A model generated the notes under the pieces. The model made no database searches, had not been told where the DNA came from, and saw only the letters and a list, made by a program, of their open reading frames with translations. This document shows, one piece after another, positions 1,066 through 19,289 of a stretch of 24,000 bases of DNA (its first letter is position 1; every line of letters begins with the position of its first letter). This stretch comes from Tractidigestivibacter montrealensis (GTDB taxonomy: Bacteria > Actinomycetota > Coriobacteriia > Coriobacteriales > Atopobiaceae): contig NZ_JANSKA010000001.1 of assembly GCF_024741235.1 (NCBI RefSeq), positions 537,133 to 561,132 on the forward strand. The letters run 5' to 3'. The position numbers and the translations under genes were made by a program.

Positions 1066-2163
1066 CTAGAGGCTAGCGACAAACTTGTCGTAGTCATCCG
1101 AGGTCGCAGGAGGCACGATGTCGCCGGACTTGATGAGCTCCTCCACAGCGAGGGCGTCGTTGTATACGTCCTCTCCCATGAGGGAGTAGTCCTCGGGGAT
1201 GCCCACTGCGCCGTCGGAGAGACCCAGGGTGATGTTGGAGCCGCCCTTAAGGTCGCCGGAGAGAAGGCGCTTGGAGACGTCCACGATGGCAACGTCGACC
1301 TCCTTGAGGGCGGAGGTGAGAACCGTGCCCTCAGCGAGGTAGGACTGGTCCATGTCGGCACCAATGGCGTAGATGCCGGCATCCTTGCAAGCATTGATGA
1401 CGCCAACGCCGGTGCCACCAGCTGCCTGGAACACAACGTCGCAGCCGTCGGAAACCATGCGCTGCGTGATGGAGCTGCCCTTGGCGGCATCGCCAAAGCT
1501 CTCGGCGTACTGGGACTCGCACTGAACGTTGAGGCCCTTCTCCTTGTTGGCATAGGCAACGCCGGCCTTGTAGCCAAACTCGAACTGGCGCAGGACGTCG
1601 CTCTCGACGCCAAGCACGTTGCCAACCATGCCGGTCTTGCTCACGCAGGCGGCAATGTAGCCAACGATGAACGACGACTCCTGGGCACGGAACTGAACGC
1701 CGGTGATATTGGAGGCGTCGGTGGGGTTGGCGTTGTCGATGATGCCAAACTGGACGTTGGGGTTGGCTTTGGCCGCGTTGCCCACAGCGTCTGCCATGGC
1801 AAAGCCAATTGCCCAGATGAGCTCTGCGTCATCGTCAACTGCCTTGTCGAGGTTGGTAGCGTAGTCGGACTCCTGCTTGGACTCGAGGTAGCTGACATCC
1901 CAGCCCTCTTCCTGCTGGAGCCGCTGGAGGCCGGACCACGAAATCTGGTTGAACGACTGGTCGTTAACGCCACCGGTATCGGTAACCATCTCAACCTTGT
2001 GCGTGGTCCCGGACGTGGCGGTACTGCTGGAGGTGTCGCTGCTGGAAGACGAGTCGCTGGACGAACCGCCGCACCCTACGAGTGCTCCGGTGGCGCCCAG
2101 TGCGCATGCGCCAGCAAGGCCCTTCAGGAAGCCACGCCGAGTAAAGCTGCTCTGATCTGGCAT
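1066..2163 (-). CDS. BMP-family (Med/PnrA-like) ABC substrate-binding lipoprotein, probably nucleoside-binding
   Basis: ORF 1066..2211. I trimmed the start to the ATG at 2161-2163, which follows GGAGAAAGGGG. The N-terminus MPDQSSFTRRGFLKGLAGACALGATGALVGCGG has a twin-arginine-like signal and a lipobox Cys, followed by an S/T-rich linker and a periplasmic-binding fold. It is co-oriented with the ATPase downstream and deoD/deoB upstream. Confidence 0.88.
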   Translation of the reverse strand: MPDQSSFTRRGFLKGLAGACALGATGALVGCGGSSSDSSSSSDTSSSTATSGTTHKVEMVTDTGGVNDQSFNQISWSGLQRLQQEEGWDVSYLESKQESDYATNLDKAVDDDAELIWAIGFAMADAVGNAAKANPNVQFGIIDNANPTDASNITGVQFRAQESSFIVGYIAACVSKTGMVGNVLGVESDVLRQFEFGYKAGVAYANKEKGLNVQCESQYAESFGDAAKGSSITQRMVSDGCDVVFQAAGGTGVGVINACKDAGIYAIGADMDQSYLAEGTVLTSALKEVDVAIVDVSKRLLSGDLKGGSNITLGLSDGAVGIPEDYSLMGEDVYNDALAVEELIKSGDIVPPATSDDYDKFVASL

Positions 2164-2233
2164 TTCTGTCCCCTTTCTCCGCCCCGTCCTCTCCCGAACG
2201 AGGTACCCCATGGAGTCAAACTTCCTATCTACA

Positions 2234-2259: not shown

Positions 2260-2988
2260 CTATGCATTTAAGTCTGGCGTCGCCAAGCTCAGCGCGACCT
2301 CCATCATCTGCGTAAGGCTCTCCTGACGCTCCTCTGCCGTGAGGGCCTCGCCGCGAGAGACAACGTCCGTCACGGTGAGAATCGTGAGCGCGCGTTTGCG
2401 GGCGCGCATCGCGTTGAGGTAGAGCGCTGCCGACTCCATCTCCACGGCAAGGACGCCCATCTTGGCCCAGCGCTGCTCCGCAGTGCGGTCGTCGTTGTAG
2501 AAGACGTCCGACGAGAGAACGTTGCCCACACGCGCGGGGTAACCCAGGCGCTCCGCTGCGTCAGCCGCACGGCGCAGGAGACCAAAGTCCGCGATGGGGG
2601 CAAGCGTGCCCGGAACGTTGAACTGGTGGGCATAGTTGGAGTCGGTGCAGGCACCCATCCCAAGCACGATGTCGCGCAGGCGCACGCTTGGTGCCACACC
2701 GCCCGCAGTGCCAATGCGCACGATCGACTCGACGCCGTAGAAGTTGAAGAGCTCGTACGAGTAGATGCCAATGGAGGGCATGCCCATGCCGCTGCCCATT
2801 ACCGACACGGGGTTGCCCTGGTAGGTGCCCGTATAGCCCAGCATGTTGCGAACGCCGTTGAACTGCTCGACGTTCTCGAGGTAGGCCTCGGCAAGGCGCT
2901 GGGCGCGGAGCGGGTCGCCCGGCATCAGGACGAACGGCGCAATCTGGCCTGCAACGGCCTCGTTGTGCGGCGTAGGGGTTCGTGCCAT
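2260..2988 (-). CDS. deoD: Purine nucleoside phosphorylase, DeoD type
   Basis: ORF 2260..3141 trimmed to the ATG at 2986-2988, with GGAGG 8 nt upstream. [30 protein letters not shown]...[10 protein letters not shown]...VRIGTAGG...GMGACTDS...VEMESAALY...ERQ aligns motif-for-motif with the E. coli DeoD sequence as I recall it. The start lies 2 nt after the deoB stop. Confidence 0.95.
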
Positions 2989-2990
2989 AG

Positions 2991-4181
2991 CTATGCCTCC
3001 AGAATCTGATCGAGGTGGGACGTGCCGTTGGGAAGTGCGGGTGAGCCAAGGTAGTCGAGAACCGTTGCTGAGACGTCCGCGAAAGTAGGCCGCGTGCCCA
3101 GGTCGACGCCGGCGCGCACGCGCGGTCCGCACGCGATCCATGGGACGTACTCGCGCGAGTGGTCAGTCGAGGGCGTCACGGGATCGCAGCCGTGGTCTGC
3201 CGTAATCATAAGCAGGTCATCGTCGCGCAGGCCCGCAACGATGCGCGGGAGCTGGCTATCAAAGTAGCTCAGGGCACGCGCATAGCCGGGCGCGTCGTTG
3301 CGGTGGCCGTAGACCATGTCGAAGTCCACGAGGTTGGTGTAGCAGAGGCCTGTGAAGTCACGGCCGGTCGCCTCGACGGTGCGCTCGATGCCCTCCTCGT
3401 TTCCTGAGGTAAAGACGTGGTCCGTTATCCCGCGGTGGGCAAAGATGTCGTAGATCTTGCCAATGGAGAGCACGTCCTGGCCCGCGTCCTTGAGCACGTC
3501 GAGCATCGTGGTGCCCGTGGGCTCCAGAGAGAAGTCATGCCTGCGCGGGGTGCGCACGTAGTTTGGCCAGTCCCCCGTGTAGGGGCGCGCGATGACGCGG
3601 GCGACGCCGTGCTCGCCCGTGAGGATCTTGCGCGCGATGCGGCAGTACTCGTAGAGCTGCTCGGGGGACACCATGTCCTCGTGCGCCGCAATCTGGAAGA
3701 CGCTGTCGCCCGAGGTGTAGACAATGAGCTTGCCAGTCTTGAGCTGCTCGCGGCCGTAGTCCTTGATCACCTGCGTACCGGAGTATGGCTTGTTGCAGAG
3801 AACCCCACGACCCGTCTGGCGCTCAAACTCGTCCAGCACCTCCTGGGGGAAACCGTTGGGATACGTGGGGAAGCGCTTGGGCGAGATGACGCCCGCCATC
3901 TCCCAGTGCCCAACCGTGGTGTCCTTGCCGGCAGACGCCTCGCGAAGGCGGGCAAACGCACCGGTGGGCGAGGCGACCGGCTTGAGGTCCACGTCATAGG
4001 GGGACTCGAGCGCGCCTTCAATGTTGAGAAGGCCAAGAGACGTCATGTTGGGGATGTTGAGCTCACCCGTGGTGGCGCAGGCGCACAAGGTGTTGCTCCC
4101 CTCGTCACCCCACTCTGCGGCATCTGGCTCGGCGCCGATGCCAAAGCTATCCAAGACGATAAGAAACACGCGCTTGCCCAT
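2991..4181 (-). CDS. deoB: Phosphopentomutase
   Basis: ORF 2991..4241 trimmed to the ATG at 4179-4181, preceded by GGAGGGGG. The N-terminus [32 protein letters not shown] and the later TADHGCDP motif are the metal-binding signatures of phosphopentomutase. Confidence 0.95.
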
Positions 4182-4400: not shown

Positions 4401-5516
4401 ATGCTCACTGACAGAGAACAGCAGATCCTTGGGTGGATTCGCGCAAACCCCTCCATTTCCCAGCAGGAGATCGCCGACCGCGCGGGCATCTCTCGATCGT
4501 CTGTCTCCGTCCATATCTCGAACCTCACCAAGAAGGGCGCGATTCTCGGCAGGCAATATGTGCTTGCCGACACCCCCTATGTCGTTGTGGTGGGAGCCAC
4601 CAACATGGATGTGGTTGGCAAGCCGGGCGGGGTTCCCACCCCGCGAGACGTCACGCCAGGCACCATCGTGGTCTCACCCGGCGGCACCGCGCGAAACGTT
4701 GCGCACAACCTCACGCTACTGGGAACCAGCACCAAGCTGGTGACCGCATTTGGGGAAGACGTGCGCGCCAGGGAGCTCTCCGAGGGGTGCATGGGAATGG
4801 GCATGGACCTCGAGGGGTCGGTGACCGTCCCCGGCGGAACCACCTCAACCTGCGTCTTTATCCTGGACGAGCACGGTGACCTCTCCCAGGCCATCGCTGA
4901 CATGGGGATTCTCGACAGCCTCACCCCCAGCGTGCTGGAGCGCAGGCTCGACCTCATCGATCGAGCCGCGGCATGCTTCGTCGACACCAACATCTCCCAC
5001 GAGAGCCTTCGCTTCCTTGCCGAGCACGTGAGCACTCCCCTGTTCTGCGACCCCGTCTCCACCACCAAGGCTGCAAAGCTCTCCGGGCTGCTGGGGCACT
5101 TCCACGCCATGAAGCCAAATGCCCTTGAGGCCGAAGCTCTCACGGGAGTCGCAATCCACGACGAGAAGAGCCTGGAGCTGGCAGCAAAAAAGCTTCTCGA
5201 TACCGGGCTTGACCAGGTGTTCATTTCACTTGGAGCCGACGGGCTTCTCTGCGCGGGACAAGACGGGATGCTTCGGCTCCCCAGCTACAGCGCAAACGTG
5301 GTGAGCGCCACGGGATCCGGTGACGCAATGATGGGGGCAATCATCTGGGCGTATCTGCAGGGTGAGAACCTGGAGGGAACCTGTGCCGCCGGCCTTGCGG
5401 TCGCCGCCATCTGCACGGAGTCTGCCTCTACCGTCAACCCCAACCTCACTGCCCAAGCAGTAAGGCAGCGTATGAACGAGGCTGGTGCGGCAGGAAAGCT
5501 TCTCTCGGCAAGCTAG
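4401..5516 (+). CDS. PfkB-family sugar/nucleoside kinase (pseudouridine-kinase/ribokinase-like) with an N-terminal winged-helix DNA-binding domain
   Basis: ORF 4281..5516 trimmed to the ATG at 4401, after GAGAGAGGGAA. Residues 1-55 (MLTDREQQILGWIRANPSISQQEIADRAGISRSSVSVHISNLTKKGAILGRQYVL) form a MarR-like wHTH. The rest has PfkB motifs: VVVGATNMDVVG, SPGGTARNVAHNL and the C-terminal TGSGDAMMGA. Confidence 0.85.
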   Translation: MLTDREQQILGWIRANPSISQQEIADRAGISRSSVSVHISNLTKKGAILGRQYVLADTPYVVVVGATNMDVVGKPGGVPTPRDVTPGTIVVSPGGTARNVAHNLTLLGTSTKLVTAFGEDVRARELSEGCMGMGMDLEGSVTVPGGTTSTCVFILDEHGDLSQAIADMGILDSLTPSVLERRLDLIDRAAACFVDTNISHESLRFLAEHVSTPLFCDPVSTTKAAKLSGLLGHFHAMKPNALEAEALTGVAIHDEKSLELAAKKLLDTGLDQVFISLGADGLLCAGQDGMLRLPSYSANVVSATGSGDAMMGAIIWAYLQGENLEGTCAAGLAVAAICTESASTVNPNLTAQAVRQRMNEAGAAGKLLSAS

Positions 5517-5567
5517 CTCTTGCGTCCAGCGCGGCCGCTTGGGACAGACCCCACGCCATCCACCGAC

Positions 5568-5605
5568 AAGTGGACATGGTCGTCTCATAAAGTGGACAAA
5601 TGTCC
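5568..5605 (+). promoter_or_regulatory. Direct repeat AAGTGGACA x2, the second copy embedded in the palindrome GGACAaaTGTCC, upstream of the Crp/Fnr-yjjI-yjjW unit
   Basis: AAGTGGACA occurs at 5568-5576 and 5590-5598, a 22-bp spacing. GGACA (5594-5598) and TGTCC (5601-5605) are inverted repeats. The elements sit about 60-95 bp upstream of the ATG at 5664. Confidence 0.3.
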
Positions 5606-5663
5606 TTTTCTTGCTGAGCGCTTGGCCTTAGCATGCACCCAAGAATCTTGGGGAGGAGGGGAC

Positions 5664-6401
5664 ATGGACACGCTTGGCTACCTCGAAACCTTGGATGCAG
5701 AGGTTCGCGACAGGCTCGCCCCTTGGGCAGGCCGAATCCCCGCCGCCCTTCTCAGCAGGTGCGCGCTCGTCAAACTAGACAAGGGCGACGAGCTTGTGCA
5801 CGAGCTTGACCGCTTTGGCTCCGTCTACGTCCTCACGCGCGGCACCATCGCCTCTACCAGCCCGCTGCTTGACGGCGGCACCTACGTGATAGACGAGTTC
5901 CATGCACCGGCAGCCTTTGGTGAGATGGAGGCCATTGGCGCTAGCCCCTTCTACCACAGCTCGCTCATGGCGGCCACAGATGCCGAGCTTATCCGCGCCT
6001 CCGGAAAGGACTACCTCGCATGGCTTTCCGGCGACGCCGACGCCTTGCTTGCTCGCTCGCGCTGGGTTGTCCAGCGACTTGCGAGCCAATCGAGCCACGA
6101 GCGCTCCCTGCTTGCCTGGACTGGCGAGAAGCGCGTTGCCTACGCACTCTGTCAGCTCTATGGCGAGGGCGGGAAGGAATGCCTGGTGGTGCCGCTAACG
6201 CGCGCACAGCTGGCAGAACGCGTGGGCGTAAGCACCAAGACGGTGAGCCGTTCCATAGCCTCGCTTGCGGATGGCGGGATGGCACGCCTTGAGGGCAGAA
6301 AGATCGTGATTGACCGAGAGGCATTTGAGCTTCTCGAGGACATGCTCCGTGACGAGCTTGGCCAAAGCTCACGCGGAAGAGAGGGGAGTGCTCGTTCATG
6401 A
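5664..6401 (+). CDS. Crp/Fnr-family transcriptional regulator (cNMP-binding-like domain plus C-terminal HTH)
   Basis: ORF 5520..6401 trimmed to the ATG at 5664, after GGGAGGAGGGG. It has a beta-roll-like N-terminal domain (GDELVHE...VYVLTRGTI...FGEMEAI) and the C-terminal HTH LTRAQLAERVGVSTKTVSRSIASLADGGM. I see no FNR-type N-terminal Cys cluster. Its stop overlaps the next start as ATGA at 6398-6401. Confidence 0.85.
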   Translation: MDTLGYLETLDAEVRDRLAPWAGRIPAALLSRCALVKLDKGDELVHELDRFGSVYVLTRGTIASTSPLLDGGTYVIDEFHAPAAFGEMEAIGASPFYHSSLMAATDAELIRASGKDYLAWLSGDADALLARSRWVVQRLASQSSHERSLLAWTGEKRVAYALCQLYGEGGKECLVVPLTRAQLAERVGVSTKTVSRSIASLADGGMARLEGRKIVIDREAFELLEDMLRDELGQSSRGREGSARS

Positions 6402-7912
6402 AGACCATCGACAACACCAAGGAGTTCTACGACATCTGCACGGCAAGCAACCTCACGTACAAGCAGAAGCTTCTGCACCTGGCGCAGGCAGCCGAGAACA
6501 GCGTCGACCCCATCGAGCGGCCAAAGGAGGCAGACTACTTCTTCGAGCACGGCGGCATTGACTACATGTGCGAGGGCAACGCGCCCTACCGCCCGCGCTA
6601 CATCTGCCCGGACTACGGCAAGTTCCTCGCCCAGGGGAGCGAGTTCTTGCGCCTTAGGCCGGCGGAGTCCCTGGATGACGCGCTCTGGAACCTCGCGATG
6701 GTCTACGACAACGTGCCTTCGGTCACCAGCCGCCCCGTCTACGTGGGCCAGCTTGACCGCATGCTCGACCCCTACCTCGACGGCTATAGCGACGAGGAGG
6801 TAAAGGCGCGCCTACGTCGCTTCCTCAACTACATTGACCGCACCGTTGCAAGCGGTTACTGCCACGCCAACATTGGTCCCGAGGAGACGCGTGCCGGCCG
6901 GCTGCTCATGGAGGTTGAGCAGGAGCTTGCCAACGCTGTGCCCAACTTCACGCTGAAGTACGATCCGGCAGTCACGCCCGACGACTTTGCCCGTCTCGCC
7001 GTGAAGGCCACGCTCACCTGCGCCAACCCCGCCTTTGCCAACGATCGCATCCACCGCGAGACCTATCCCGGAGACTACACGGTGGTAAGCTGCTACAACG
7101 TGCTGCCCATGGGCGGCGGCGCCTACTGCCTCGACCGCCTGCTGTTCCCGCGCCTTGCTGACATGGCGTCGAGCGTAGATGACTTCATGGACAACATCCT
7201 CCCGTCTGCCACGGGCGCGCTTCTCGAGTACATGAACTCCCGCATCAAGTTCCTTGTCGAGACGTCGAACTTCTTCGAGACCTCGTTCCTCGCCAAGGAG
7301 GGCCTCATCAGCCGTGACCGCTTCTGCGCGATGTTTGGCGTAGCCGGCATGAGTGAATGCGTGGCCAAGCTGCTTGGCCTTCACGACGGCCGCGCCTACG
7401 GAACTGACGACGAGGCCAACGACCTTGCCGACCGCATCATGTGCCAGGTCTACAAGCAGGTCCTGGGGTTCCCAGCCGTGTACTCGGAGGTCTCCGGCAA
7501 CCGCTTCACGCTGCATGCGCAGGCTGGCTTCTCCGACATGCCGGGCGTGACTCCGGGCGTCCGCATCAAGGTTGGCGACGAGCCCGAGGTCTTCTACGAC
7601 CACATTCGTCACAGTGCCCGCATGCATCGCTTCTTCAACGCCGGCGTCTCCGACATCTTCCCCGTTGAGCCCACGGCCAAGTCCAACCCCGACGCCGTTC
7701 TCGACGTTGTGAAGGGCGCCTTTGCCATCGACGACAAGTACCTCTCGTTCTACTCGTCCAACGGGGACTTGGTTCGCATTACGGGCTTCCTGGTGAAGCG
7801 CTCGGAGATGGAGAAGTTCGCCCGTGGCGAGGCAGTGCTCGCCGATACCTCGCATGACGGCGAGGGCAACTGGCGGGCAAACGACCTTGCCGACCGCAAG
7901 GTTCGTCTGTAG
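6398..7912 (+). CDS. yjjI: YjjI-family glycyl-radical enzyme (short GRE, 504 aa), substrate unknown
   Basis: The C-terminal glycyl-radical fingerprint is NGDLVRITGFLVKR, with Gly463 encoded at 7784-7786, 41 residues from the C-terminus. Blocks CEGNAPYRPRYICPDYGKFL, VPSVTSRPVYVGQLD, HANIGPEE, PNFTLKYDP.VTPDD and VVSCYNVLPMGGG match the E. coli YjjI sequence as I recall it. A dedicated activase gene follows directly. Confidence 0.85.
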   Translation: MKTIDNTKEFYDICTASNLTYKQKLLHLAQAAENSVDPIERPKEADYFFEHGGIDYMCEGNAPYRPRYICPDYGKFLAQGSEFLRLRPAESLDDALWNLAMVYDNVPSVTSRPVYVGQLDRMLDPYLDGYSDEEVKARLRRFLNYIDRTVASGYCHANIGPEETRAGRLLMEVEQELANAVPNFTLKYDPAVTPDDFARLAVKATLTCANPAFANDRIHRETYPGDYTVVSCYNVLPMGGGAYCLDRLLFPRLADMASSVDDFMDNILPSATGALLEYMNSRIKFLVETSNFFETSFLAKEGLISRDRFCAMFGVAGMSECVAKLLGLHDGRAYGTDDEANDLADRIMCQVYKQVLGFPAVYSEVSGNRFTLHAQAGFSDMPGVTPGVRIKVGDEPEVFYDHIRHSARMHRFFNAGVSDIFPVEPTAKSNPDAVLDVVKGAFAIDDKYLSFYSSNGDLVRITGFLVKRSEMEKFARGEAVLADTSHDGEGNWRANDLADRKVRL

Positions 7913-7923
7913 GGAGCGCTGCG

Positions 7924-8763
7924 GTGTCCGTTCATGTACCGATTAACAACATCATCCCGTTTTCGCTGGTGGACGGCCCTGGATCGCGCTGCTCGATCTT
8001 TGTCCAGGGTTGCAACATCCACTGCGCGTATTGCCACAACCCAGAGACCCAGCGGCTCTGCGTTGGCTGCGGCGCCTGCGTGAGATCGTGCCCGGCGGGA
8101 GCCCTCAAGATGGTGTGTGGCGCCGTCGAGTGGGACCAGGACGCATGCGTGAAGTGCGACACGTGCATCCACGTGTGCCCCAACCACTCGTCGCCCCGCA
8201 TCCTCTACCTCGACGCGGAGCAGGTCTTTGAGCGCGTGAAGTCGTACATGCCCTTCATTAGGGGGGTCACCTGCTCGGGTGGCGAGTGCATGCTCTATCC
8301 GGAGTTTCTCTCCGAGCTCTTTGGGCTGTGCCGAGGCGTAGGTCTTGGTTGTCTCATCGACTCCAACGGAACGGTAGACTTTGCCGGGCATCAGGACCTT
8401 CTTGCGCTCTCTGATGGCGTGATGCTCGACCTCAAGTGTTGGGATGATTCGTGGTTTGTCTCGCTCACGGGGACAGGCGGAAAGGCAGTCCGCAAGAACC
8501 TCGCCTTTCTTGCGGAGCAGGATAAGCTTGCTGAGCTGCGCGTCATTGTGACCGTGGGCCGCAACGACCCCGAAGTGGCGGTGCGTGGGGCAGCCGGGGT
8601 GCTTGGGGAGAAGGTGGCCTCCACGAGGCTGAGGCTCATGCGCTTTCGCCACTTTGGCGTTCGTGGGGAGATGGAGGGGGCGCCCTCCCCTACTGACGAG
8701 CGCATGGGCGCCATGGAGGAGCTTGCGAGGTCGTTGGGTTTTGGCACCGTTGTGGTGAGCTAG
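7924..8763 (+). CDS. yjjW: YjjW-type glycyl-radical enzyme activating protein (radical SAM with two ferredoxin-like auxiliary clusters)
   Basis: GTG start at 7924, 7 nt after GGGAG (7912-7916). The radical-SAM motif is GCNIHCAYCHN (C30/C34/C37, nt 8011-8034). It is followed by CVGCGACVRSCP and CVKCDTCIHVCP 4Fe-4S motifs and by GVTCSGGEC (SAM-binding GGE). Confidence 0.9.
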   Translation: MSVHVPINNIIPFSLVDGPGSRCSIFVQGCNIHCAYCHNPETQRLCVGCGACVRSCPAGALKMVCGAVEWDQDACVKCDTCIHVCPNHSSPRILYLDAEQVFERVKSYMPFIRGVTCSGGECMLYPEFLSELFGLCRGVGLGCLIDSNGTVDFAGHQDLLALSDGVMLDLKCWDDSWFVSLTGTGGKAVRKNLAFLAEQDKLAELRVIVTVGRNDPEVAVRGAAGVLGEKVASTRLRLMRFRHFGVRGEMEGAPSPTDERMGAMEELARSLGFGTVVVS

Positions 8764-8787
8764 TTAGGATCATACCGACGAAGGTAG

Positions 8788-8830
8788 ACGGCCGGCCTGG
8801 CGCGGATTGAGCCAGGACGGCCGTTGTTGT
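8788..8830. terminator. Stem-loop terminator between the convergent yjjW and deoC genes
   Basis: ACGGCCGGCCTGGC (8788-8801) pairs with GCCAGGACGGCCGT (8811-8824), a 14-bp stem with one mismatch and a 9-nt loop. TGTTGT follows on the plus strand. Confidence 0.6.
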
Positions 8831-8855
8831 ATGGCGGCCCCCATGAAACCAGACG

Positions 8856-9497
8856 TCAGCCCTCGACAATCTTGATGCCCGCGCTGCAGCCGAGGCGGTC
8901 GGCTCCTGCCTCAACCATGGCAAGCGCCTCCTCCTTGGTGTGGATGCCGCCCGCAGCCTTGACCTTGCAGCGGTCGCCCACGGTCTTGCGCATGAGCGCC
9001 ACGTCGTGCACCGTGGCGCCACCCGTCGAAAAGCCGGTGCTGGTCTTCACGAACGAGGCGCCCGCTGCAACCGCGTCCTCGCAGGCGCGGACAATCTGCT
9101 CGTCATTGAGCAGGCAGCACTCCAGAATGACCTTCACGGGGTGGCCCTGGGCAGCCCTGACGACGGCTGCTATGTCATCGATGACGTACTGGTCGTCGCC
9201 AGCGACGAGGTGACCGCCATTGACCACCATGTCGATCTCTGTGGTCCCGTCCGCCACGGCCTGGGCGGCCTCGGCGGCCTTCGCCTGCGTGGAGCAGGCA
9301 CCCAGAGGGAAGCCGATGCAGGTGGTCACGCCCACGCCGGTGCCCGCAAGGCGCTTGGCAGCCATCGCCGTCCAGCACGAGTTGATTGCAACCGTCGCGA
9401 AGTGGTACTTGGCCGCCTCGTCGCACAGGCGCTCGATGTCTGCCTGCGTCGCGTTCTGCTTGAGATTGGTGTGATCGATGTAGCCATTGAGTTCCAT
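8856..9497 (-). CDS. deoC: Deoxyribose-phosphate aldolase (class I DERA)
   Basis: ORF 8856..9860 trimmed to the ATG at 9495-9497, after GGGAG. MELNGYIDHTNLKQNATQADIERLCDEA...VTTCIGFPLG...EIDMV...VKVILE...FVKTSTGF...VKAAGGI are canonical DERA blocks that include the Schiff-base lysine context. Confidence 0.95.
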   Translation of the reverse strand: MELNGYIDHTNLKQNATQADIERLCDEAAKYHFATVAINSCWTAMAAKRLAGTGVGVTTCIGFPLGACSTQAKAAEAAQAVADGTTEIDMVVNGGHLVAGDDQYVIDDIAAVVRAAQGHPVKVILECCLLNDEQIVRACEDAVAAGASFVKTSTGFSTGGATVHDVALMRKTVGDRCKVKAAGGIHTKEEALAMVEAGADRLGCSAGIKIVEG

Positions 9498-9658
9498 AAC
9501 AAACTCCCGTCTTACGAAGACCCTCCCATAGCTTCCAGCCCACACCTTGGCACAAACAAGATGCTGACGCAATGAGCGCCTCGGCAGCCGTATGGCATCC
9601 CACTCATCACTGACGGCTACACACAGACCCAGGTGAGGCCTAGTTCGCCCAATACTGA

Positions 9659-9808
9659 TTCCTGGCATCAATTGACGGTTGGGATACGGTTTATCGGGCA
9701 CCCACTGAGTACAAACTGGTTCGAGATTTGTTAAACACCTGGTAGACGAATTGCCATCATGACGATTACATATCATTATTGAAACCAAAACTGCTGCCAA
9801 CCGGAAGT
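9659..9808 (-). repeat. Arm B of a diverged AT-rich inverted duplication; sense on the minus strand, in the region upstream of deoC
   Basis: The reverse complement of 9659-9808 aligns without gaps to 9864-10013 at about 70% identity by my hand count (105/150). Near-identical blocks are ACTTCCGGTTRGCAGCAGTT, ATATGT, GCAATTC, TTTAACAAAYYTCGAACCA, CCGYATCCCAACC and TGCCAGG. Confidence 0.75.
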
Positions 9809-9863
9809 CGCCTTTTGCATCAGTACAAGCGCTCGGATTCCAAGGGGCGCCGAGGGTCATCGC

Positions 9864-10013
9864 ACTTCCGGTTAGCAGCAGTTATTGTTCAAGTCTTTAT
9901 ATGTCATTATGCATATCGCAATTCTTTGACCTGCGCTTTAACAAACTTCGAACCATTTGATACTTGGGGGTACCCTCAAAAACCGCATCCCAACCAGAAA
10001 TTCTTGCCAGGCA
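9864..10013 (+). repeat. Arm A of the same inverted duplication; sense on the plus strand, with no downstream plus-strand gene
   Basis: See arm B. The arms are head-to-head and separated by a 55-bp GC-richer spacer (9809-9863). Arm A runs towards the adh terminator at 10047-10087. Confidence 0.75.
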
Positions 10014-10046
10014 GGGCGAGGAACCAGCCCACAGCTCTGCGGTTAG

Positions 10047-10087
10047 CCAAAGGAAAAGAGGGACGGAGCCAAAAGGCTCCGTCCCTC
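10047..10087 (-). terminator. Rho-independent terminator of the alcohol dehydrogenase gene
   Basis: GAGGGACGGAGCC (10058-10070), loop aaaa, GGCTCCGTCCCTC (10075-10087): a perfect 13-bp stem. On the minus strand it is followed by TTTTCCTTTGG. It lies 34 nt downstream of the stop at 10121. Confidence 0.8.
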
Positions 10088-10120: not shown

Positions 10121-11347
10121 CTAGAAGTTGACCGGCTCGTCGTAGTAGCAGCACTTGAGGATCTTCTCGAAGTCCTCCGCCTTGGTCTCGCGCGGGTTCT
10201 CCGGCGTGCAAGCATCCTGAACTGCGTTGGCAGCAATGGTGGGGAGCTTCTCGAGGAACTCCTTCTCGGAGACCATGACGGGCTCGCCGGTCTCGTCAGC
10301 CTTCACGCCGCCATTGGCGTAGTTGTTGATGCTCTGCGGAATGTGCAGCTCGTCGTTCATGCTGCGGATCTTCTCCACAAGCGAGTCGATAAGCTGGTCG
10401 TCGGTGGTGCCGGGAAGGTGCAGGATCTCCTTGGCAACATAGGCGTAGCGCTCGTGAGCGCGCGGGTCCTTGGAGTTCCACTGGATGGCCTTGCCCAGGT
10501 ACATGGCGTTGGCGGCACCGTGAATGATGTGGCCGTTCTCGAAGGCAGCGCCGGTCTTGTGGGCCATGGAGTGCACGATGCCGAGCAGGCCAGAGGAGAA
10601 CGCCAGGCCGGCCAGGCACTGGGCCTCGTGCATGTGCTTGCGGCCCTCATGATCGCCGGTGTAGGAGACGGGCAGCCACTGCGTAATCTCACGGATGCCG
10701 TGCAGCGCGTCGGCGTCGGTGAACATGGAGGCTGCTGTCGAGACGTACGCCTCGAGACAGTGCGTAAGGGCATCCATACCGGTGTGTGCGCAGAGCTTCT
10801 GAGGCATGGAGTAGGTGAGCTCGGGGTCGACGATGGCAACGTCAGGCGTGATGTTGAAGTCTGCCAGCGGGTACTTAATGCCATGCTCGTAGTCGGTAAT
10901 GACCGAGAAGGCCGTTACCTCGGTAGCGGTGCCGGAAGTGGAGCTAATAGCGCAGAAGTGAGCCTTGTGGCGCAGCTCGGGGAACGAGAACGGCTGAATG
11001 ATGTTATCGAACTTCTCGTCGGGATACTCGTAGAAGACCCACATGGCCTTCGCGGCGTCGATAGGCGAGCCTCCGCCGATGGCAACAATCCAGTCCGGGC
11101 CAAAGTCCTGCATGAACTTGGCGCCCTTCTGCACCGTCTCGATGGACGGGTCGGACTCGACGCCCTCGAACAGCTTGACCTCAAAGCCAGCATCCTCCAG
11201 GTCCTTCTGAACGTCCTGCAGGAAGCCGCCGCGACGCATGCTGTGGCCACCGGAGACGATGACGGCCTTCTTGCCCTTGAGGTTCTTCACCTCGTGGCGA
11301 GCGCCCTCACCAAAGTACAGGTCACGCGGGTTGGTAAAACGTCCCAT
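10121..11347 (-). CDS. Iron-containing (group III) alcohol dehydrogenase
   Basis: A 408-aa ORF with GGAGGA upstream. Fe-ADH blocks are present: IVAIGGGSPIDAAKAMW, ISSTSGTATEVT, and the metal-binding His context AHTGMDALTHCLEAY...GIVHSMAHKTG...HG.ANA. Confidence 0.9.
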   Translation of the reverse strand: MGRFTNPRDLYFGEGARHEVKNLKGKKAVIVSGGHSMRRGGFLQDVQKDLEDAGFEVKLFEGVESDPSIETVQKGAKFMQDFGPDWIVAIGGGSPIDAAKAMWVFYEYPDEKFDNIIQPFSFPELRHKAHFCAISSTSGTATEVTAFSVITDYEHGIKYPLADFNITPDVAIVDPELTYSMPQKLCAHTGMDALTHCLEAYVSTAASMFTDADALHGIREITQWLPVSYTGDHEGRKHMHEAQCLAGLAFSSGLLGIVHSMAHKTGAAFENGHIIHGAANAMYLGKAIQWNSKDPRAHERYAYVAKEILHLPGTTDDQLIDSLVEKIRSMNDELHIPQSINNYANGGVKADETGEPVMVSEKEFLEKLPTIAANAVQDACTPENPRETKAEDFEKILKCCYYDEPVNF

Positions 11348-13767: not shown

Positions 13768-13999
13768 CGATAGTTCAAAAACACTGTTCGCAATACACCT
13801 CCCTTCAAACGTTCTCCAAGATGTAATCGTTTGGGACCTCGTTTCGAAACATTTTTCAACCGTTCACCCCATTTTGATGACCGCTCGTGGTATTCGAGAG
13901 ATAGCAACTCTCGTTTATGGGCAGGCTGGCCAGTTATCCGTGGCGTCCTTTGTCGTGCCACGCATGGGATACCATGAGAGCGACGAAAGGAGGCGCACC

Positions 14000-15073
14000 G
14001 TGGCGTTTGACCCCAGGAGAGAGGACTACCAGCGTCTGGCGCTGCGCTATGCGCTGTCGCTGCCCAAGGGGAACCCCGTTGCCGCGGCCAAGGCGTTCAC
14101 GGACTTTGGCCGCCGCTTTGCCCGTGATCGGGACACGCTTCCCCAATCCGATGCCGACCGCGCCTTCCACCTCGTGGCCGTTGCCGCCGAGGTCATCGAC
14201 TACCAGCTTCCCTTCTCGAGCGAAGAAAGGGCGGACGCGCTCATCAACCGCGGGCGCGACCTTCTCGACGAGGCCATCTCGCTCGACCCCAAGTGCCACG
14301 ACGCTATCCGCATGCGCGCCTCGCGCGTGAGTCCCAGTTTTGATGCCCAGTTCTCCTTCCTCCACGAAGGCGCGGACGAGGTTCTCGCGTCCTGCCAGGA
14401 GGCTCGCGACGCCGTGCCAAACGACGGGGACGATGAGCGCATTGCCCTTGGCCGCGACATCGCCCTTCGTCCCTATAGGCGGTGGATGGCCGCGCTGGCC
14501 GAGGAGGCACTCATCTGTGGCCGCAATCGCAGCTGCATAGAGGCCGGCGAGCGCCTGCTGGAGCAGGACCCCTCGGACCAGGCGGACGTTCGGTTCACGC
14601 TTGCCCTTGCCTACGCAAAGCTCGAGGATGAGGCATCCCTTGACGCGCTGGCCAAGCGCTACGGCACCATCATCCCTGCACGCCCCGCAGACGACGCCTG
14701 GATGGGAATCGCACGGCTGGCACTAGCGCACAAGAGCCACGACATGGGCCAGACCCGGCAGCTTCTCGAGCGCCTGATCGCCGCCTATCCGGGCTGCGCG
14801 TCCGCGCTTATTACGCAAACGGAGCTGCCGGACGGCGTCTTTGCCCGTCTCGCCGTGCCGCCCTACAGCGAGGACGAGCTCATCCTTGCCGTCTCCGAGG
14901 CAACGGTGCTGCTCCAGGAAGGCGACGACAAGAGCGGGCGCGGCGTACTTGGCTCCTGGGTCGCGCGGACCACGGCAAAGCTCTATCCCGAGGCGCTCGC
15001 CGAGGCGCAGGAGTTCTCCGCCCCCTACTACCAGCAGGACGAGAAGGGCCCGCAGGACGGTGATGCCTCGTGA
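14000..15073 (+). CDS. Hypothetical alpha-helical repeat (TPR-like) protein, paralog 1
   Basis: ORF 13874..15073. I prefer the GTG at 14000 because AAAGGAGG (13986-13993) sits 6 nt upstream; the ATGs at 13877 and 13964 lack an SD, so the start is uncertain. GC3-rich codon usage matches the neighbouring genes. I recognise no catalytic motif. It is homologous to the next ORF. Confidence 0.6.
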   Translation: MAFDPRREDYQRLALRYALSLPKGNPVAAAKAFTDFGRRFARDRDTLPQSDADRAFHLVAVAAEVIDYQLPFSSEERADALINRGRDLLDEAISLDPKCHDAIRMRASRVSPSFDAQFSFLHEGADEVLASCQEARDAVPNDGDDERIALGRDIALRPYRRWMAALAEEALICGRNRSCIEAGERLLEQDPSDQADVRFTLALAYAKLEDEASLDALAKRYGTIIPARPADDAWMGIARLALAHKSHDMGQTRQLLERLIAAYPGCASALITQTELPDGVFARLAVPPYSEDELILAVSEATVLLQEGDDKSGRGVLGSWVARTTAKLYPEALAEAQEFSAPYYQQDEKGPQDGDAS

Positions 15074-16041
15074 ACGGACGAGAGGAGCTTGTGCTCAGGT
15101 GCGCCCAGCGGCGCCGCGAGAAGATAGGCACCCTATCTGACGAGGGGTTTGCCGAGCTGTGCCTGGCCGTGCGAGAGAATCCCTCGGCCTTTGTCGACTC
15201 CCCCGAGCAGGCGTCGTTCGCCACGCTCGTTGGCGCGCTGGACGCATTCCACCGCGCCGGCGCCGATGATGACCTTCTCGACGACGAGGAGTTCCGCGCG
15301 GCACGCGAGCGCAGGTTGCAGACGCTCTCGGCAGCATGCGACCAGGCGCTCTCGCAGGACGGCGGCTGCCTGGACGCACGGCTCGTGCAGGTGCTTGCCG
15401 CAGACCTGGACCCCGACGACAGGCTCGACGCTCTTCTCGAGATCGAGGCCAAGGCAGACGCGGCGAACGAGCTCACCCTTGGCAGCACGGGTGACGCCTG
15501 GGACGACGTCTTCACGCGGCCGCGGCTGCGCCTGTGGGACGCCATCGCACGCACCTGCCTTGCAGGTGGCCGCTACCACATGGCGCTCGACGTCTCGCGC
15601 GGCCTCATGGCGGCGTCACCCAAAGACCAGGTTGGCGGCAGGCTCACAGCTGCGCTTGCCCTGGCGCGTCTGGAGGACGAGGAGGGCTTCAACGAGCTTG
15701 ACGCACGCCTTGCCGGTCGTGAGAACTCCTGGCTCAATCTGGGGCGCACCATCCTCCTCTACAAGCTGGGCCGCATGAACGCCGCGCGCCGTGCGCTACG
15801 CGGGTACGGCGAGCTCTGCGAGGGAGCGGCGTACGCCCTGCTCAGACCCACGTTTGTAGAGATCTACCTCCCCGACAGGCCCGAGGTTCCCGCAGGGGGC
15901 TTCGAGGAGGCAACGTTTGCCGTCCACGAGGCGGAGCCCATCATTGCGGACGTGCCAGACTTCATCGCCTGGGCGGACGGCTTCCCGTGGTTCCATGCTG
16001 CCGGCGAGGCATATGCGGAGGAGCACGGATACGACTGGTAG
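15070..16041 (+). CDS. Hypothetical alpha-helical repeat (TPR-like) protein, paralog 2
   Basis: The GTG start overlaps the upstream stop as GTGA at 15070-15073. It shares collinear blocks with paralog 1: RPRLRLWDAIARTCLAGGR vs RPYRRWMAALAEEALICGR, RLTAALALARLEDEEGF vs RFTLALAYAKLEDEASL, and WLNLGRTILLYK vs WMGIARLALAHK. Confidence 0.65.
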   Translation: MNGREELVLRCAQRRREKIGTLSDEGFAELCLAVRENPSAFVDSPEQASFATLVGALDAFHRAGADDDLLDDEEFRAARERRLQTLSAACDQALSQDGGCLDARLVQVLAADLDPDDRLDALLEIEAKADAANELTLGSTGDAWDDVFTRPRLRLWDAIARTCLAGGRYHMALDVSRGLMAASPKDQVGGRLTAALALARLEDEEGFNELDARLAGRENSWLNLGRTILLYKLGRMNAARRALRGYGELCEGAAYALLRPTFVEIYLPDRPEVPAGGFEEATFAVHEAEPIIADVPDFIAWADGFPWFHAAGEAYAEEHGYDW

Positions 16042-16639: not shown

Positions 16640-17638
16640 CTACCCCAGCCTGGCAAGCACGGAGGCCGCAATGCCCTCGGGCGTGAGCCCCGCGCGCTCC
16701 AGCAGGCGAGCCTGCTCGTCCGCCTCGGGATAGCCGTCGGGCGCACCCAGGCGCAGCAGCCCAGGGGTAGCGCCGCGGTCGAGCAGCTCCTCGGCGAGAA
16801 GTCCGCCAAGTCCGCCCACCACGCTGTGCTCCTCCACCGTCACGTCAAGCCGCGCGTTGGCGAGAAGCTCAACAACGTGCTGGTCAAGGGGCTTTATCGT
16901 ACCCACGGTCACCACGCGGCAGGAAAGCCCCCGCCCACGCAGCAGCTGGGCGGCAGCTAGCGCGCGAGACGCGATGGAGCCGCAGGTAGCAATCGCAACG
17001 TCTGCCATGCGGCCGGGCGCGTCATCCGCAAGTACGCGGCAGAGCCCAAGCTCGAAGTCCCCACTGGGAAGCGCAGGGTCGCCCGCGGGCGCCTGCGTGA
17101 TGCGCACGTAGGCCGGTCGCGGATTGCGCGCGAGCTCCGCAAGCGCACAGGCAAGCTCGGTGTTGGTCGCCGGTGCCACCACGGTGAGGCCCGGGATAGA
17201 GCGCATGCACGCAAGGTCCTCCAGGGCCATGTGGCTGGGGCCAAGGATGCCCGCGTGGTAGCCTGCGCCGAGCCCAACCAGCACGACCGGCGACTCCATC
17301 ATTCCCAAGTTGACGCGCACCTGGTCGAGCACGCGGGCCGTGATGAACGGCGCATAGGACGGCGCAAACACGTGGAAGCCCTCGTTGGCAAGGGCGGATG
17401 CAACCTCGACCTGGTTCTGCTCGGCAATACCGCACTGAACAACGGAGCCCGGCAGCTTTGAGCGCAGCACATCGAGCGCAAGTCGGCGGCCGTAGTCCGA
17501 GACAACGGCCATGACCTGCGGGTCATTCTCGGCAATCTTTCCAAGCGCCCGGCCAAAGGCCACGCGCGAGTCCAGCCGGTCGAACTCGGCCGGGTCTGCG
17601 ACGACCGCAGACTCCACAGCAACAGCTTCCCTAGACAT
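16640..17638 (-). CDS. Transketolase, C-terminal subunit (pyrimidine-binding plus C-terminal domains) of a split transketolase
   Basis: ORF 16640..17677 trimmed to the ATG at 17636-17638, which overlaps the upstream stop by 8 nt. Matching blocks are GIAEQNQVEVASALANEGFHVFAPSYAPF, GPSHMALEDLACMRSIPGLTVVAP and TVEEHSVVGGLG. Confidence 0.9.
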   Translation of the reverse strand: MSREAVAVESAVVADPAEFDRLDSRVAFGRALGKIAENDPQVMAVVSDYGRRLALDVLRSKLPGSVVQCGIAEQNQVEVASALANEGFHVFAPSYAPFITARVLDQVRVNLGMMESPVVLVGLGAGYHAGILGPSHMALEDLACMRSIPGLTVVAPATNTELACALAELARNPRPAYVRITQAPAGDPALPSGDFELGLCRVLADDAPGRMADVAIATCGSIASRALAAAQLLRGRGLSCRVVTVGTIKPLDQHVVELLANARLDVTVEEHSVVGGLGGLLAEELLDRGATPGLLRLGAPDGYPEADEQARLLERAGLTPEGIAASVLARLG

Positions 17639-19289
17639 GGCCCACCTCCCGACCAAGCTCCCTGACCGCCCGCGCATAGAGCTCGTCGGTCAGCTTGTTG
17701 TCGTGCCACTCCACGCAGTTCTCGGCAAACGAGAGGCCCTTCCCCTTGGTGGTGTGGGCAAGCACGGCCCGCGGCCGCGTATGGCTTGGCGCAAGCACGC
17801 TCCAGAGGGCGCTCACGTCGTGGCCGTCCACCTCGATTGCCTCGAAGCCAAAGGCGCGGAACTTCTCCGCGAGGCTGCCCGTGTCGAGAATCTGCGCCGT
17901 AGGGCCATCGAGCTGCAGCCCGTTGACGTCGACGATAACCGTGAGCGACGCCAACCCCATATGCCCTGCAAGCGCGGCAGCCTCCCAGACCGAGCCCTCG
18001 TTGCATTCGCCATCGCCAAGAAGGCAGAAGACGCGTGAGCCGCTCGCACGCCTGTTTGCGGCAATCGCAAGGCCGCACGCATAGCCCAGCCCCATGCCCA
18101 GACTGCCACCGGAGGTCTCGATGCCACGAGCGGGGTCTCGCCTGGGGTGCTTGAACAGCACCGCATTGGGGCCGAGAAGCCCGCGGTCAATGTCCTCCTG
18201 CGAGACCAGGCCCGCATGAAGCAGGGCCGGGTAGAGCGCGAGAGAGGCGTGACCCTTGGAGAGCACAAAGCGGTCGCGCTGCTCCCAGGGGGTGCCGTCC
18301 GCTCCAGTGCGCATAACGCCCCCGTAGAGCACGGCGAGAATCTCTGCCGCAGAGAGGCTGCCACCCAGGTGGAACGGCATGTTTGGGTTAGCGTGCGCAA
18401 ACTCGACGACGGTCTTGCGAATGTCCAGGGCCAGACCGGAGAGCCGACGCCGTTCAGAGGGGGCAAGCGCGGGGGCAAGCGCCGTGGGTAGCCAGCCGTC
18501 CTGGACCGAGGTCCCAGCCACCTCCTGGCCGGCACGCAGCCAGGTGAGGCCCCACTCGATGACCGTTGCGTCCGCAAGGCCTATGGTCTGGCGCAGCACC
18601 AGCACGGGGTCGTTCTCGCCACATCCCAGCGCCTCCGCGCGTTCCCCTGCCGAAGAGGCGGAGTAGCGCAACTTCGACCAGGTAATCTTTCGGCCAGAGC
18701 AGCGCTCCACGGCGTCGAAAGCCGTCTCACACGAGAAGTCCGCATCTTCCAGGCCCGGGCACTCCCCCAGGTTCTCCCAGCCCTCCTGGCAGATGACCGG
18801 CTTGCCGTCGACAGTGCGAACGCGCAGCAGGTAGAGCACCGGACTGCCCGGCTGTATGCGCAGGTGCTCGGCAACGTCTGCGGGAGCGGGGATCACGCGC
18901 TTCTCGAGGACGTGGGTCACAAAGTCTTTGCCCTGCTCGCGGAGGGACTCGCCAAACGAGAGGGACCGCTCGCCTGCGGGATGCGAGAGAGCGCGCTCCG
19001 AGACAAAGGTGCCCGAGCCGCGCACCTGGACGAGAAATCCCTCGTCCACGAGCTCGCTGATGGCGCGGCGCACGGTACCGCGCGAAATGCCAAAGCGGGC
19101 CATGAGCTCGTGCTCGGAGGGAATACGTGAACCGGGGGCCCACTCGTGCAGGCCGATCTTCTCGCGCAGGAGGGCGGCCAGCTGCGAGTACACCGGGGCA
19201 GAGCCCGCCTTGCCTGCAGAGCGCTCTGTGGACCTGCTCGCCACCGCCTGTGGCGCGCCCCCAAACGCATCCATGCCGTTCTCTGCCAT
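17631..19289 (-). CDS. Fusion protein: GntR-family HTH plus UTRA (HutC-like) effector domain joined to the N-terminal TPP-binding half of a split transketolase
   Basis: ORF 17631..19490 trimmed to the ATG at 19287-19289 (GGGGGAGGGG upstream), because the longer form overlaps tRNA-Leu. Residues ~32-100 are a GntR HTH (PSEHELMARFGISRGTVRRAISELVDEGFLVQVRGSGTFV) and ~105-255 are UTRA-like. An Ala/Pro linker is encoded at ~18444-18524. Transketolase N-terminal motifs follow: HLGGSLSAAEILAVLY, SKGHASLALY, LLGDGECNEGSVWEA and VDVNGLQLDG. Confidence 0.8.
   Translation of the reverse strand: MAENGMDAFGGAPQAVASRSTERSAGKAGSAPVYSQLAALLREKIGLHEWAPGSRIPSEHELMARFGISRGTVRRAISELVDEGFLVQVRGSGTFVSERALSHPAGERSLSFGESLREQGKDFVTHVLEKRVIPAPADVAEHLRIQPGSPVLYLLRVRTVDGKPVICQEGWENLGECPGLEDADFSCETAFDAVERCSGRKITWSKLRYSASSAGERAEALGCGENDPVLVLRQTIGLADATVIEWGLTWLRAGQEVAGTSVQDGWLPTALAPALAPSERRRLSGLALDIRKTVVEFAHANPNMPFHLGGSLSAAEILAVLYGGVMRTGADGTPWEQRDRFVLSKGHASLALYPALLHAGLVSQEDIDRGLLGPNAVLFKHPRRDPARGIETSGGSLGMGLGYACGLAIAANRRASGSRVFCLLGDGECNEGSVWEAAALAGHMGLASLTVIVDVNGLQLDGPTAQILDTGSLAEKFRAFGFEAIEVDGHDVSALWSVLAPSHTRPRAVLAHTTKGKGLSFAENCVEWHDNKLTDELYARAVRELGREVGHV

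Follow-up and report, generated by a model that had tools for sequence, protein, structure and literature searches.

What does an orphan glycyl-radical enzyme do among the genes of nucleoside catabolism? The question is raised by a stretch of 24,000 nucleotides from Tractidigestivibacter montrealensis (contig NZ_JANSKA010000001.1, positions 537,133 to 561,132 of the forward strand; hereafter the window), in which three adjacent genes on the plus strand encode a CRP-family regulator of 245 aa (5664..6401), a YjjI-family glycyl-radical enzyme of 504 aa (6398..7912) and a YjjW-family radical S-adenosylmethionine (SAM) activase of 279 aa (7924..8763). Our analysis of protein families, promoter sequences and gene neighbourhoods indicates that this trio is very likely a bona fide YjjI/YjjW system with a functional link to nucleoside catabolism and a dedicated activator of the CRP type.

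The YjjI/YjjW pair and its regulator

Both enzymes of the trio exceed the cutoffs of their curated families. YjjI is matched by PF11230 (YjjI-like) at 680.9 bits over 485/485 model positions and by TIGR04040 at 602 bits (cutoff 498.3) over positions 2-497 of 497; YjjW is matched by TIGR04041 at 350 bits (cutoff 250) and carries the motif CNIHCAYC together with two CxxCxxCxxxCP motifs. An earlier note, made from the letters of this DNA, had assigned the two proteins to YjjI and YjjW and described the second as an activase with CX3CX2C and two ferredoxin-type clusters, and both statements stand. The radical Gly463 (codon 7784-7786, within the motif DLVRITGFLVKR) and Cys232 (codon 7091-7093, within the loop VVSCYNVLPMGGG) are invariant in a 42-sequence YjjI alignment with identities down to 37%, and the motifs R[IVL][TS]G[YF] and SC[YF]N are kept in 17/17 complete divergent representatives of 50%-identity clusters; the glycine picked out from this one sequence thus proves to be conserved. 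Membership of YjjI in the pyruvate formate-lyase (PFL)-like group was rejected, as PF02901 (IPR004184) reaches 20.6 bits against a gathering score of 24.3 and covers a stretch of 70 residues only. From family membership it is expected that YjjW would use SAM and [4Fe-4S] clusters to place a radical on Gly463 of YjjI, which would then generate a thiyl radical on Cys232 that abstracts a hydrogen atom from the substrate.

The window YjjI is 98% identical to that of 'bacterium OL-1 / Jeddahella massiliensis' (Atopobiaceae). YjjI and YjjW of E. coli (b4380/b4379) belong to the same curated family, with 40% identity, the same Gly and Cys motifs and an adjacent activase with two ferredoxin clusters. 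The trio adds a member to a family that is known but orphan. By sequence, YjjI/YjjW forms a third family of glycyl-radical enzymes, next to the ribonucleotide reductase (RNR) type and the PFL type, with members in E. coli, Salmonella, Haemophilus and numerous Actinomycetota and Bacillota of the gut; a review of June 2026, in which the superfamily comprises two InterPro families, does not mention YjjI (PMC13450708). Full-length YjjI forms only about 20-25 clusters at 50% identity among 1.84 billion representatives, and a family so small and tightly conserved suggests one conserved function.

The genes at 5664-8763 overlap or nearly abut and are followed by a hairpin terminator, forming a self-contained operon. 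The regulator gene is preceded by a ribosome-binding site, GGAGGAGG; its stop overlaps the start of yjjI in the tetranucleotide ATGA (6398-6401), and the yjjI stop is separated from the GTG start of yjjW by an 11-nt gap that contains a GGAG Shine-Dalgarno sequence. Between the convergent yjjW and deoC genes, a GC-rich hairpin followed by UUGUUGU (8787..8830, plus strand) is the probable terminator of the trio; its stem has 14 bp, and the enclosing 77 nt (8764-8840) fold at -33.7 kcal/mol (z = -2.6). Open reading frame (ORF) listing, translation and Pfam/NCBIfam scans bear out all sequence-level statements of the earlier note on the coordinates, junctions and motifs of these three genes.

The regulator contains the cNMP_binding and HTH_Crp_2 domains (PF00027, 39.3 bits; PF13545, 46.7 bits; each over its cutoff), whereas its best equivalog matches are far under cutoff (FixK, 47.9 vs 300; CRP, 31.5 vs 266). 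Against a profile of the regulator family, E. coli CRP reaches 89 bits, FNR 39 and YeiL 22, and the family shares a conserved F-AP-x-x-FGEME motif; in the window protein the position of CRP Arg82 is occupied by His. An FNR-type oxygen sensor was rejected, as a 14-member alignment of the family has no conserved Cys cluster, and the regulator should therefore sense a small molecule and not oxygen directly. The Crp/Fnr label given previously is thus right as to the family domains, but the protein is closer to CRP than to FNR and lacks the FNR-type cysteines. Orthology to YeiL, which in E. coli stands beside nucleoside genes and YeiI, was also rejected on the profile scores (22 bits vs 89 for CRP). 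There is nevertheless a likeness to the yei region of E. coli (yeiI-nupX-rihB and yeiL-psuT-psuG-psuK), in which, as in the window, a winged helix-turn-helix (wHTH)-PfkB kinase and a CRP/FNR regulator accompany genes for nucleoside transport and cleavage, and YeiL carries an F-AP-x-x-GE-x-E stretch as the regulator family does; the yei region, however, has no glycyl-radical enzyme and the window has no PsuG.

For the operator search, the sequence 5' of the crp-like gene was taken from every locus. The palindrome AAGGACAnnTGTCCTT was found 5' of the crp-like gene or of yjjI in regulator-carrying Atopobiaceae, Caproiciproducens-like Bacillota, Neobacillus and Texcoconibacillus, and further in Tissierellia, Clostridium, Lachnospiraceae and Lacrimispora, with essentially one high-quality site per 20-kb locus in a constant place. 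In the window its palindromic core, GGACAAATGTCC, lies at 5594..5605, the only match there and the presumed site of the regulator, and a -10-like hexamer, TAGCAT (5629..5634, plus strand), follows 23 nt 3' of it. The distance from the palindrome to the -10-like hexamer, which is TATAAT, TATATT or TACAAT in other loci, is 23-24 nt in 16/18 representative loci and 21 and 22 nt in the other two; this spacing puts the centre of the palindrome near -41.5, as in class II promoters activated by CRP/FNR. The crp-like gene is directly upstream of yjjI in 6/16 lineages (defined below) and at +5.7 kb in a seventh, Lacrimispora; in Lacrimispora and Hungatella, with the regulator gene 5.7 kb downstream, the palindrome is yet found 99 nt upstream of yjjI itself. 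Lineages that lack the regulator generally lack the operator as well (E. coli, Proteus, RUG Coriobacteriaceae, and lineages 7 and 10-12), the exceptions being L037 and L091. With one mismatch allowed, the 10-base core is not uncommon by chance (91 occurrences observed vs about 41 in shuffles), and the evidence for an operator therefore lies in position, exactness and spacing rather than in the count. The palindrome was rejected as a terminator: its stem has 4-5 bp with a viable loop, its A/T flanks are symmetric, its spacing to the -10 hexamer is fixed, and it is present even where the upstream gene is on the opposite strand.

We propose that the trio has its own promoter in the gap between the kinase and regulator genes and is probably subject to positive autoregulation. 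A dimer of the regulator would bind AAGGACAnnTGTCCTT near -41.5, as the geometry of CRP/FNR promoters suggests, and, once bound to a small-molecule effector, would activate its own gene together with yjjI-yjjW. The dedicated Crp-family sensor put forward in the earlier note gains support from the co-occurrence of the regulator gene and the palindromic operator with yjjI across two phyla, Actinomycetota and Bacillota; the regulator-yjjI-yjjW trio behind a conserved palindrome, recurrent in both, is new here. About 22 nt upstream of the palindrome, at 5568-5587, there is a second conserved element, AAGTGGACATGG-N4-TCTCA, common to Olsenella-like loci, with the Atopobium equivalent TTGTCTCA-N5-GTGGACA; a role as an additional half-site or UP-like element is conceivable. 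An Rfam scan of the cluster returned two tRNAs only, with no riboswitch or other known RNA.

In E. coli K-12 the yjjW-yjjI pair is divergent from deoCABD, in line with the adjacency given in the earlier note. Unlike the window, E. coli has neither a dedicated regulator gene nor the AAGGACAnnTGTCCTT operator, and employs the global regulators FNR and CRP instead: enterobacterial yjjI is directly activated by FNR (PMC3688515), Yersinia yjjI is induced anaerobically (PMC3792023), and a chromatin immunoprecipitation peak of CRP lies in the yjjI/deoC intergenic region (PMC4287617). The window trio is a probably autoregulated module in a cluster fuller than that of E. coli, comprising an importer, cdd, pdp, deoD, deoB, the kinase, deoC and an alcohol dehydrogenase gene.

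Nucleoside genes around yjjI

One genome per GTDB species was scanned with the YjjI alignment, yielding 578 confirmed relatives; the 80 best loci were retained, each with flanks of 10 kb, and 12 further places were added by exact-protein look-up. Single linkage of the tblastn-derived YjjI sequences at identities of at least 75% gave 16 lineages, and four extra divergent ones brought the number to 20. Neighbours were tallied both from tblastn searches, for which proteins of the window and of E. coli served as queries, and from all-vs-all clustering of the flanking ORFs. Within +/-8 kb of yjjI, YjjW was found in 15/16 lineages (its gene adjoins yjjI in all 15), an ATP-binding cassette (ABC) ATPase in 13/16, a phosphorylase of the purine nucleoside phosphorylase/Udp family, Bmp and an ABC permease in 10/16 each, the CRP-like regulator in 7/16 and DeoB in 6/16. 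A clear link to nucleoside genes, within about 8-10 kb, is present in 13/20 lineages, against some 5% expected for a random gene within 8 kb of such genes, a figure that is a rough estimate and was not computed.

The partners of yjjI vary in type, including BMP-ABC or NupG importers, phosphorylases (Udp, DeoD or Pdp) or else Rih hydrolases with ribokinase, and Cdd, DeoB and DeoC. Atopobium and Lancefieldella retain the layout of the window, and Caproiciproducens-like Bacillota have udp and deoB immediately upstream. Tissierellia, Clostridium and Lacrimispora carry Bmp-ABC genes 3' of yjjI-yjjW in the same orientation, with cdd, pdp or deoD beyond them. In Neobacillus the gene after yjjW encodes a nucleoside permease of the NupG family (TIGR00889, 611 bits vs cutoff 446), and in Texcoconibacillus yjjW is followed by a RihA/UriH-like hydrolase, a ribokinase and RihC. 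A Christensenellaceae genome carries an energy-coupling factor (ECF) transporter and a PNP_UDP_1 gene upstream of the pair, and a divergent YjjI of 41% identity adjoins a Rih-like hydrolase and a BPD_transp_2 permease. Such varied gene orders and non-homologous but equivalent enzymes argue for functional coupling rather than inherited synteny, as does the occurrence beside yjjI of three unrelated importer types and of both the phosphorylase and the hydrolase-plus-kinase routes. The cautious reading of the earlier note, that a recurrence of the E. coli adjacency in this distant lineage would make the link probably functional and that the enzyme could act on a ribose-, deoxyribose- or nucleoside-derived intermediate, is thereby supported; of the outcomes that the note named as refuting it, those open to computational checks (no match to the YjjI family, a non-conserved Gly463, a neighbourhood without enrichment) all turned out in its favour. 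The phosphorylase is a uridine phosphorylase in five Bacillota/Spirochaetota lineages (TIGR01718, 278-319 bits vs cutoff 280), and the context as a whole leans, on sequence evidence, to ribo- and pyrimidine nucleosides and not specifically to deoxyribose.

The same set of functions surrounds the trio in the window. The BMP-ABC importer, deoD, deoB, the wHTH-PfkB kinase and the convergent deoC, which the earlier note had listed as flanks, are all present, although the catabolic genes on the left are divergent from the trio and not co-oriented with it. On the minus strand, a partial ABC ATPase lies to the left of the gene for a BMP/PnrA-family nucleoside-binding lipoprotein of the importer (1066..2211; PF02608, 263 bits), followed by deoD (purine nucleoside phosphorylase, 2260..2988; TIGR00107, 280 bits vs cutoff 232) and deoB (phosphopentomutase, 2991..4181; NF003766, 510 bits vs cutoff 256). 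Past the left edge, identical contigs with gene calls show two permeases, cdd and pdp on the minus strand. The kinase gene is on the plus strand (4401..5516) and most likely starts at 4401, not 4281; its product is YeiI-like, with 36% full-length identity to E. coli YeiI and 32% to the pseudouridine kinase PsuK, and is not a ribokinase. A kinase of this kind is found near yjjI only in four Atopobiaceae/Coriobacteriales lineages. To the right of the trio, deoC (deoxyribose-phosphate aldolase, 8856..9497, minus strand; TIGR00126, 248.5 bits vs cutoff 117) most likely starts with MELNGY at 9497, not 9860. It is separated from an iron-type alcohol dehydrogenase gene (10121..11347, minus strand), whose product best matches the alcohol dehydrogenase half of AdhE, by the latter's own terminator hairpin at 10058-10087; CstA follows the alcohol dehydrogenase.

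It is proposed that YjjI is an anaerobic radical enzyme of ribonucleoside catabolism that acts on the ribosyl part of its substrate, which from sequence and context we consider reasonably probable. The substrate would derive from imported ribonucleosides, with a leaning to uridine and cytidine as judged from the cross-phylum neighbourhoods, and would most likely be ribose-5-phosphate, ribose-1-phosphate or the nucleoside itself, supplied by the importers, the phosphorylases or hydrolases, the kinase and DeoB. The route through phosphorylase and DeoB and the route through hydrolase and ribokinase converge on ribose-5-phosphate, and the ribosyl unit is therefore the best common denominator.

Alternatively, the target of YjjI may be the nucleobase once released, above all uracil or some other pyrimidine, or one of its reduction products, the sugar genes being the ordinary remainder of the operons. 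Uracil-producing partners do recur (uridine phosphorylase, cytidine deaminase, pyrimidine nucleoside phosphorylase and the RihA/UriH-like hydrolase), and at L091 yjjI-yjjW is followed by PreA (399 bits vs cutoff 335), a dihydropyrimidinase/allantoinase-like cyclic amidohydrolase and an M20/M28 peptidase, a context that points to the pyrimidine base and not to the sugar. However, the known reductive pyrimidine pathway requires no radical enzyme, and the purine-specific DeoD and RihC co-occur with yjjI too. The fold neighbours NrdD, PflD and YbiW (see below) all bind sugar phosphates, and the many invariant Arg and His residues of YjjI fit a phosphorylated ligand without proving one. Action on the base is thus improbable.

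A further explanation would deprive the nucleoside adjacency of meaning and give YjjI an unrelated anaerobic role, for example one linked to nitrogen or nitrate. A bicluster study of 2011 grouped yjjI with narG and nitrate-responsive genes and predicted a role in nitrogen metabolism from co-expression alone (PMC3228777); moreover, in Proteus and at L100, the latter a locus with an E. coli-like YjjI, the pair has only unrelated genes around it, and Proteus keeps the serB-smp synteny around the pair with deo absent. This explanation is difficult to reconcile with a link in 13/20 lineages that involves differing orders and non-homologous equivalent partners, the rough chance estimate being about 5%, or with the several Bacillota in which importer and catabolic genes lie 3' of yjjW in its orientation, downstream of the yjjI promoter, and we hold it to be quite improbable.

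The tie of YjjI to ribonucleoside catabolism has nevertheless to be weighed against several results that, like the L091 context, do not favour it. Of the 20 lineages, four have no nucleoside genes nearby, these being Proteus (L087), L100, Bacillus massiliigorillae (L072) and several single loci such as the Coriobacteriales locus L040, and in Tissierellia L058/L090 there is only an adenosine deaminase about 7 kb off; three lineages, L091 (PreA), L093 and L099 (E. coli-like YjjI), are ambiguous or base-directed. The link is strong in Actinomycetota and Bacillota but weak in Pseudomonadota, where it is confined to E. coli. DeoC lies within +/-8 kb of yjjI in 4/16 lineages, a fifth having it at +8.3 kb. 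The operator was not found at the deoB/kinase, bmp or deoC promoters of the window, and co-regulation of the trio with the catabolic genes is therefore unsupported here. Finally, we found in the literature no published characterisation or function for any YjjI/YjjW member, in agreement with the statement of the earlier note that the family has no established substrate.

The cross-phylum link to ribonucleoside import and cleavage narrows the candidate substrates of an orphan enzyme, and the regulator-operator pair offers a second handle on it. With this link, its leaning to pyrimidine and ribonucleosides and the regulator-operator module, all of which are new here, the function of YjjI becomes directly testable.

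Predicted fold and candidate chemistry of YjjI

An AlphaFold model of YjjI, built on 42 sequences, has a mean predicted local distance difference test (pLDDT) score of 91 and a predicted template modelling (pTM) score of 0.91, and is assigned to the fold of glycyl-radical enzymes, for which a ten-stranded alpha/beta barrel with a finger loop bearing Cys and a Gly loop at the C terminus is characteristic. In a Foldseek search of the PDB, the top 50 matches are all glycyl-radical enzymes, either NrdD or PFL-like, with probability 1.00. Class III RNRs rank first (E = 2.7e-16, TM scores of 0.66-0.76, 13-15% identity), and after NrdD come the sugar-phosphate enzymes PflD and YbiW (8id0, 8id7) and the diol and hydroxyproline dehydratases. 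HHalign likewise aligns YjjI with NrdD at 96% probability over the catalytic barrel (NrdD residues 145-695). A profile search of PDB sequences found no member of the family, which implies that no YjjI structure has been solved.

The Cys-bearing finger loop and the Gly loop near the C terminus have the same locations in YjjI as in class III RNR. However, the ATP cone and helical region of NrdD (residues 1-144) and its Zn ribbon have no counterpart in YjjI, the Zn-ribbon segment being gapped in the HHalign alignment; the finger loop reads Met-x-Cys in NrdD and Ser-Cys232-Tyr-Asn in YjjI; and the activase is of the YjjW type, with extra ferredoxin clusters, and not of the NrdG type that accompanies NrdD. 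YbiW and PflD differ from YjjI in their length (about 770-810 aa vs 504 aa), in being PFL-like and in their loop (Cys-x-Glu vs Cys-x-Asn). Both are C-O lyases/isomerases that turn a derivative of a sugar phosphate into a deoxy-ketose phosphate, which is then cleaved by an aldolase to glyceraldehyde-3-phosphate and a small carbonyl compound (PMC13450708); in the window, DeoC would be the aldolase.

By analogy with these enzymes, YjjI would perform an RNR-like cleavage of the C-O bond at C2, as a dehydration or a deoxygenation. The product would be, or would readily become, a 2-deoxypentose phosphate, formed directly or through a keto intermediate that is then reduced; DeoC would split it to glyceraldehyde-3-phosphate and acetaldehyde, and the neighbouring AdhE-like alcohol dehydrogenase would convert the latter to ethanol. 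This specific route from deoxygenation to DeoC, drawn by analogy, is speculative and on balance doubtful, and it is likewise unlikely that YjjI is a minimal RNR relative that deoxygenates or dehydrates the ribosyl 2-position of a free ribose phosphate or a ribonucleoside. The alignments weigh against deoxygenation, as the reducing Cys175 of E. coli NrdD aligns to the invariant Tyr68 of YjjI. The only invariant Cys of YjjI is C232; C208 is about 90% conserved and aligns to NrdD Arg360. With no second invariant Cys in these alignments, an RNR-type net reduction by YjjI would need another reductant or a partner dehydrogenase. The route is further disfavoured by the presence of DeoC near yjjI in no more than a quarter to a third of lineages and by the L091 context. 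If the proposal were true, YjjI together with DeoB, DeoC and the AdhE-like alcohol dehydrogenase would provide a new anaerobic split of ribose from C5 to C3 and C2 (glyceraldehyde-3-phosphate and acetaldehyde/ethanol), which bypasses the pentose-phosphate and phosphoketolase pathways and would be switched on by the CRP-type regulator acting on AAGGACAnnTGTCCTT; with such a ribose-to-deoxyribose step, the fermentation of pentoses would gain a new route and RNR-like chemistry a new branch.

That YjjI is instead a stripped-down class III RNR, making deoxyribonucleotides at the nucleotide level in a back-up or specialised capacity, is very improbable: although NrdD is its closest fold and profile match, weak precomputed matches to PF13597 (NRDD) exist on many homologues, and nrdD-nrdG lies 3 kb upstream of the trio in Neobacillus, no NrdD family model is among the Pfam/NCBIfam matches of the window YjjI, YjjI lacks the ATP cone, the Zn ribbon and the region of the specificity site and has Tyr68 aligned to Cys175, NrdDG is already present in both E. 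coli and Neobacillus, the neighbours are catabolic and import genes and not those of nucleotide synthesis, and the two-ferredoxin-cluster activase is closest to dehydratase activases rather than to NrdG.

Further features of the window and related loci

Between the start of deoC and the terminator of the alcohol dehydrogenase gene, the region 9560-10040 contains an imperfect hairpin of about 370 nt (arms 9661-9808 and 9864-10011), which folds as DNA at -87 kcal/mol (z = -9.6) and has no Rfam match. Both the window and L006 have this hairpin, whereas the otherwise near-identical contigs L002-L005 lack it and are shorter by about 350 nt at this place; it looks like an insertion of the miniature inverted-repeat transposable element type in the promoter region of deoC.

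Farther to the right, two overlapping plus-strand ORFs of 399 and 323 aa (13874-15073 and 15070-16041) have no Pfam/NCBIfam match; at least the first occupies the same place in Olsenella-like and Atopobium/Lancefieldella lineages, and the pair (13874-16041) resembles an unannotated two-gene module between cstA and a tRNA/phosphotransferase system IIB gene. A single minus-strand ORF at 17631-19490, with no internal stop, joins a GntR helix-turn-helix and a UTRA domain to the N-terminal, thiamine diphosphate-binding half of a split transketolase. On identical contigs, too, the gene callers predict one product, of 552 aa; a fusion of a regulator with transketolase would be unusual. The 5' end of the longest form of this ORF is overlapped by a tRNA (19464-19545, minus strand). 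An ORF of 703 aa at 21486-23597 (minus strand) has a MazG nucleoside-triphosphate pyrophosphohydrolase domain at about residues 441-699 only, its first 440 residues being without an NCBIfam match.

Three observations concern the related loci. In Neobacillus sp. WH10 (L086), nrdD-nrdG (5051-7404) lies on the same strand as crp-yjjI-yjjW-nupG, with three small genes between. A protein resembling esterase D and S-formylglutathione hydrolase (PF00756) is encoded near yjjI-yjjW in three Bacillota lineages (L064 10703-11494, minus strand; L067 8398-9189, plus strand; L091 10346-11164, plus strand), adjoining the pair in two and 7.3 kb off in L064; at L091 it is followed by a LarA-type nickel racemase, PreA and the cyclic amidohydrolase. 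Its recurrence may point to an ester, lactone or formyl intermediate in the pathway. A YczE/YitT-like membrane protein, weakly matched by NF052291, is encoded within 8 kb of yjjI in five lineages (L050 1395-2072, L059 3634-4344, L064 8971-9618, L067 2812-3510 and L074 3706-4341), where it usually adjoins uridine phosphorylase and a Bmp-like ABC system.

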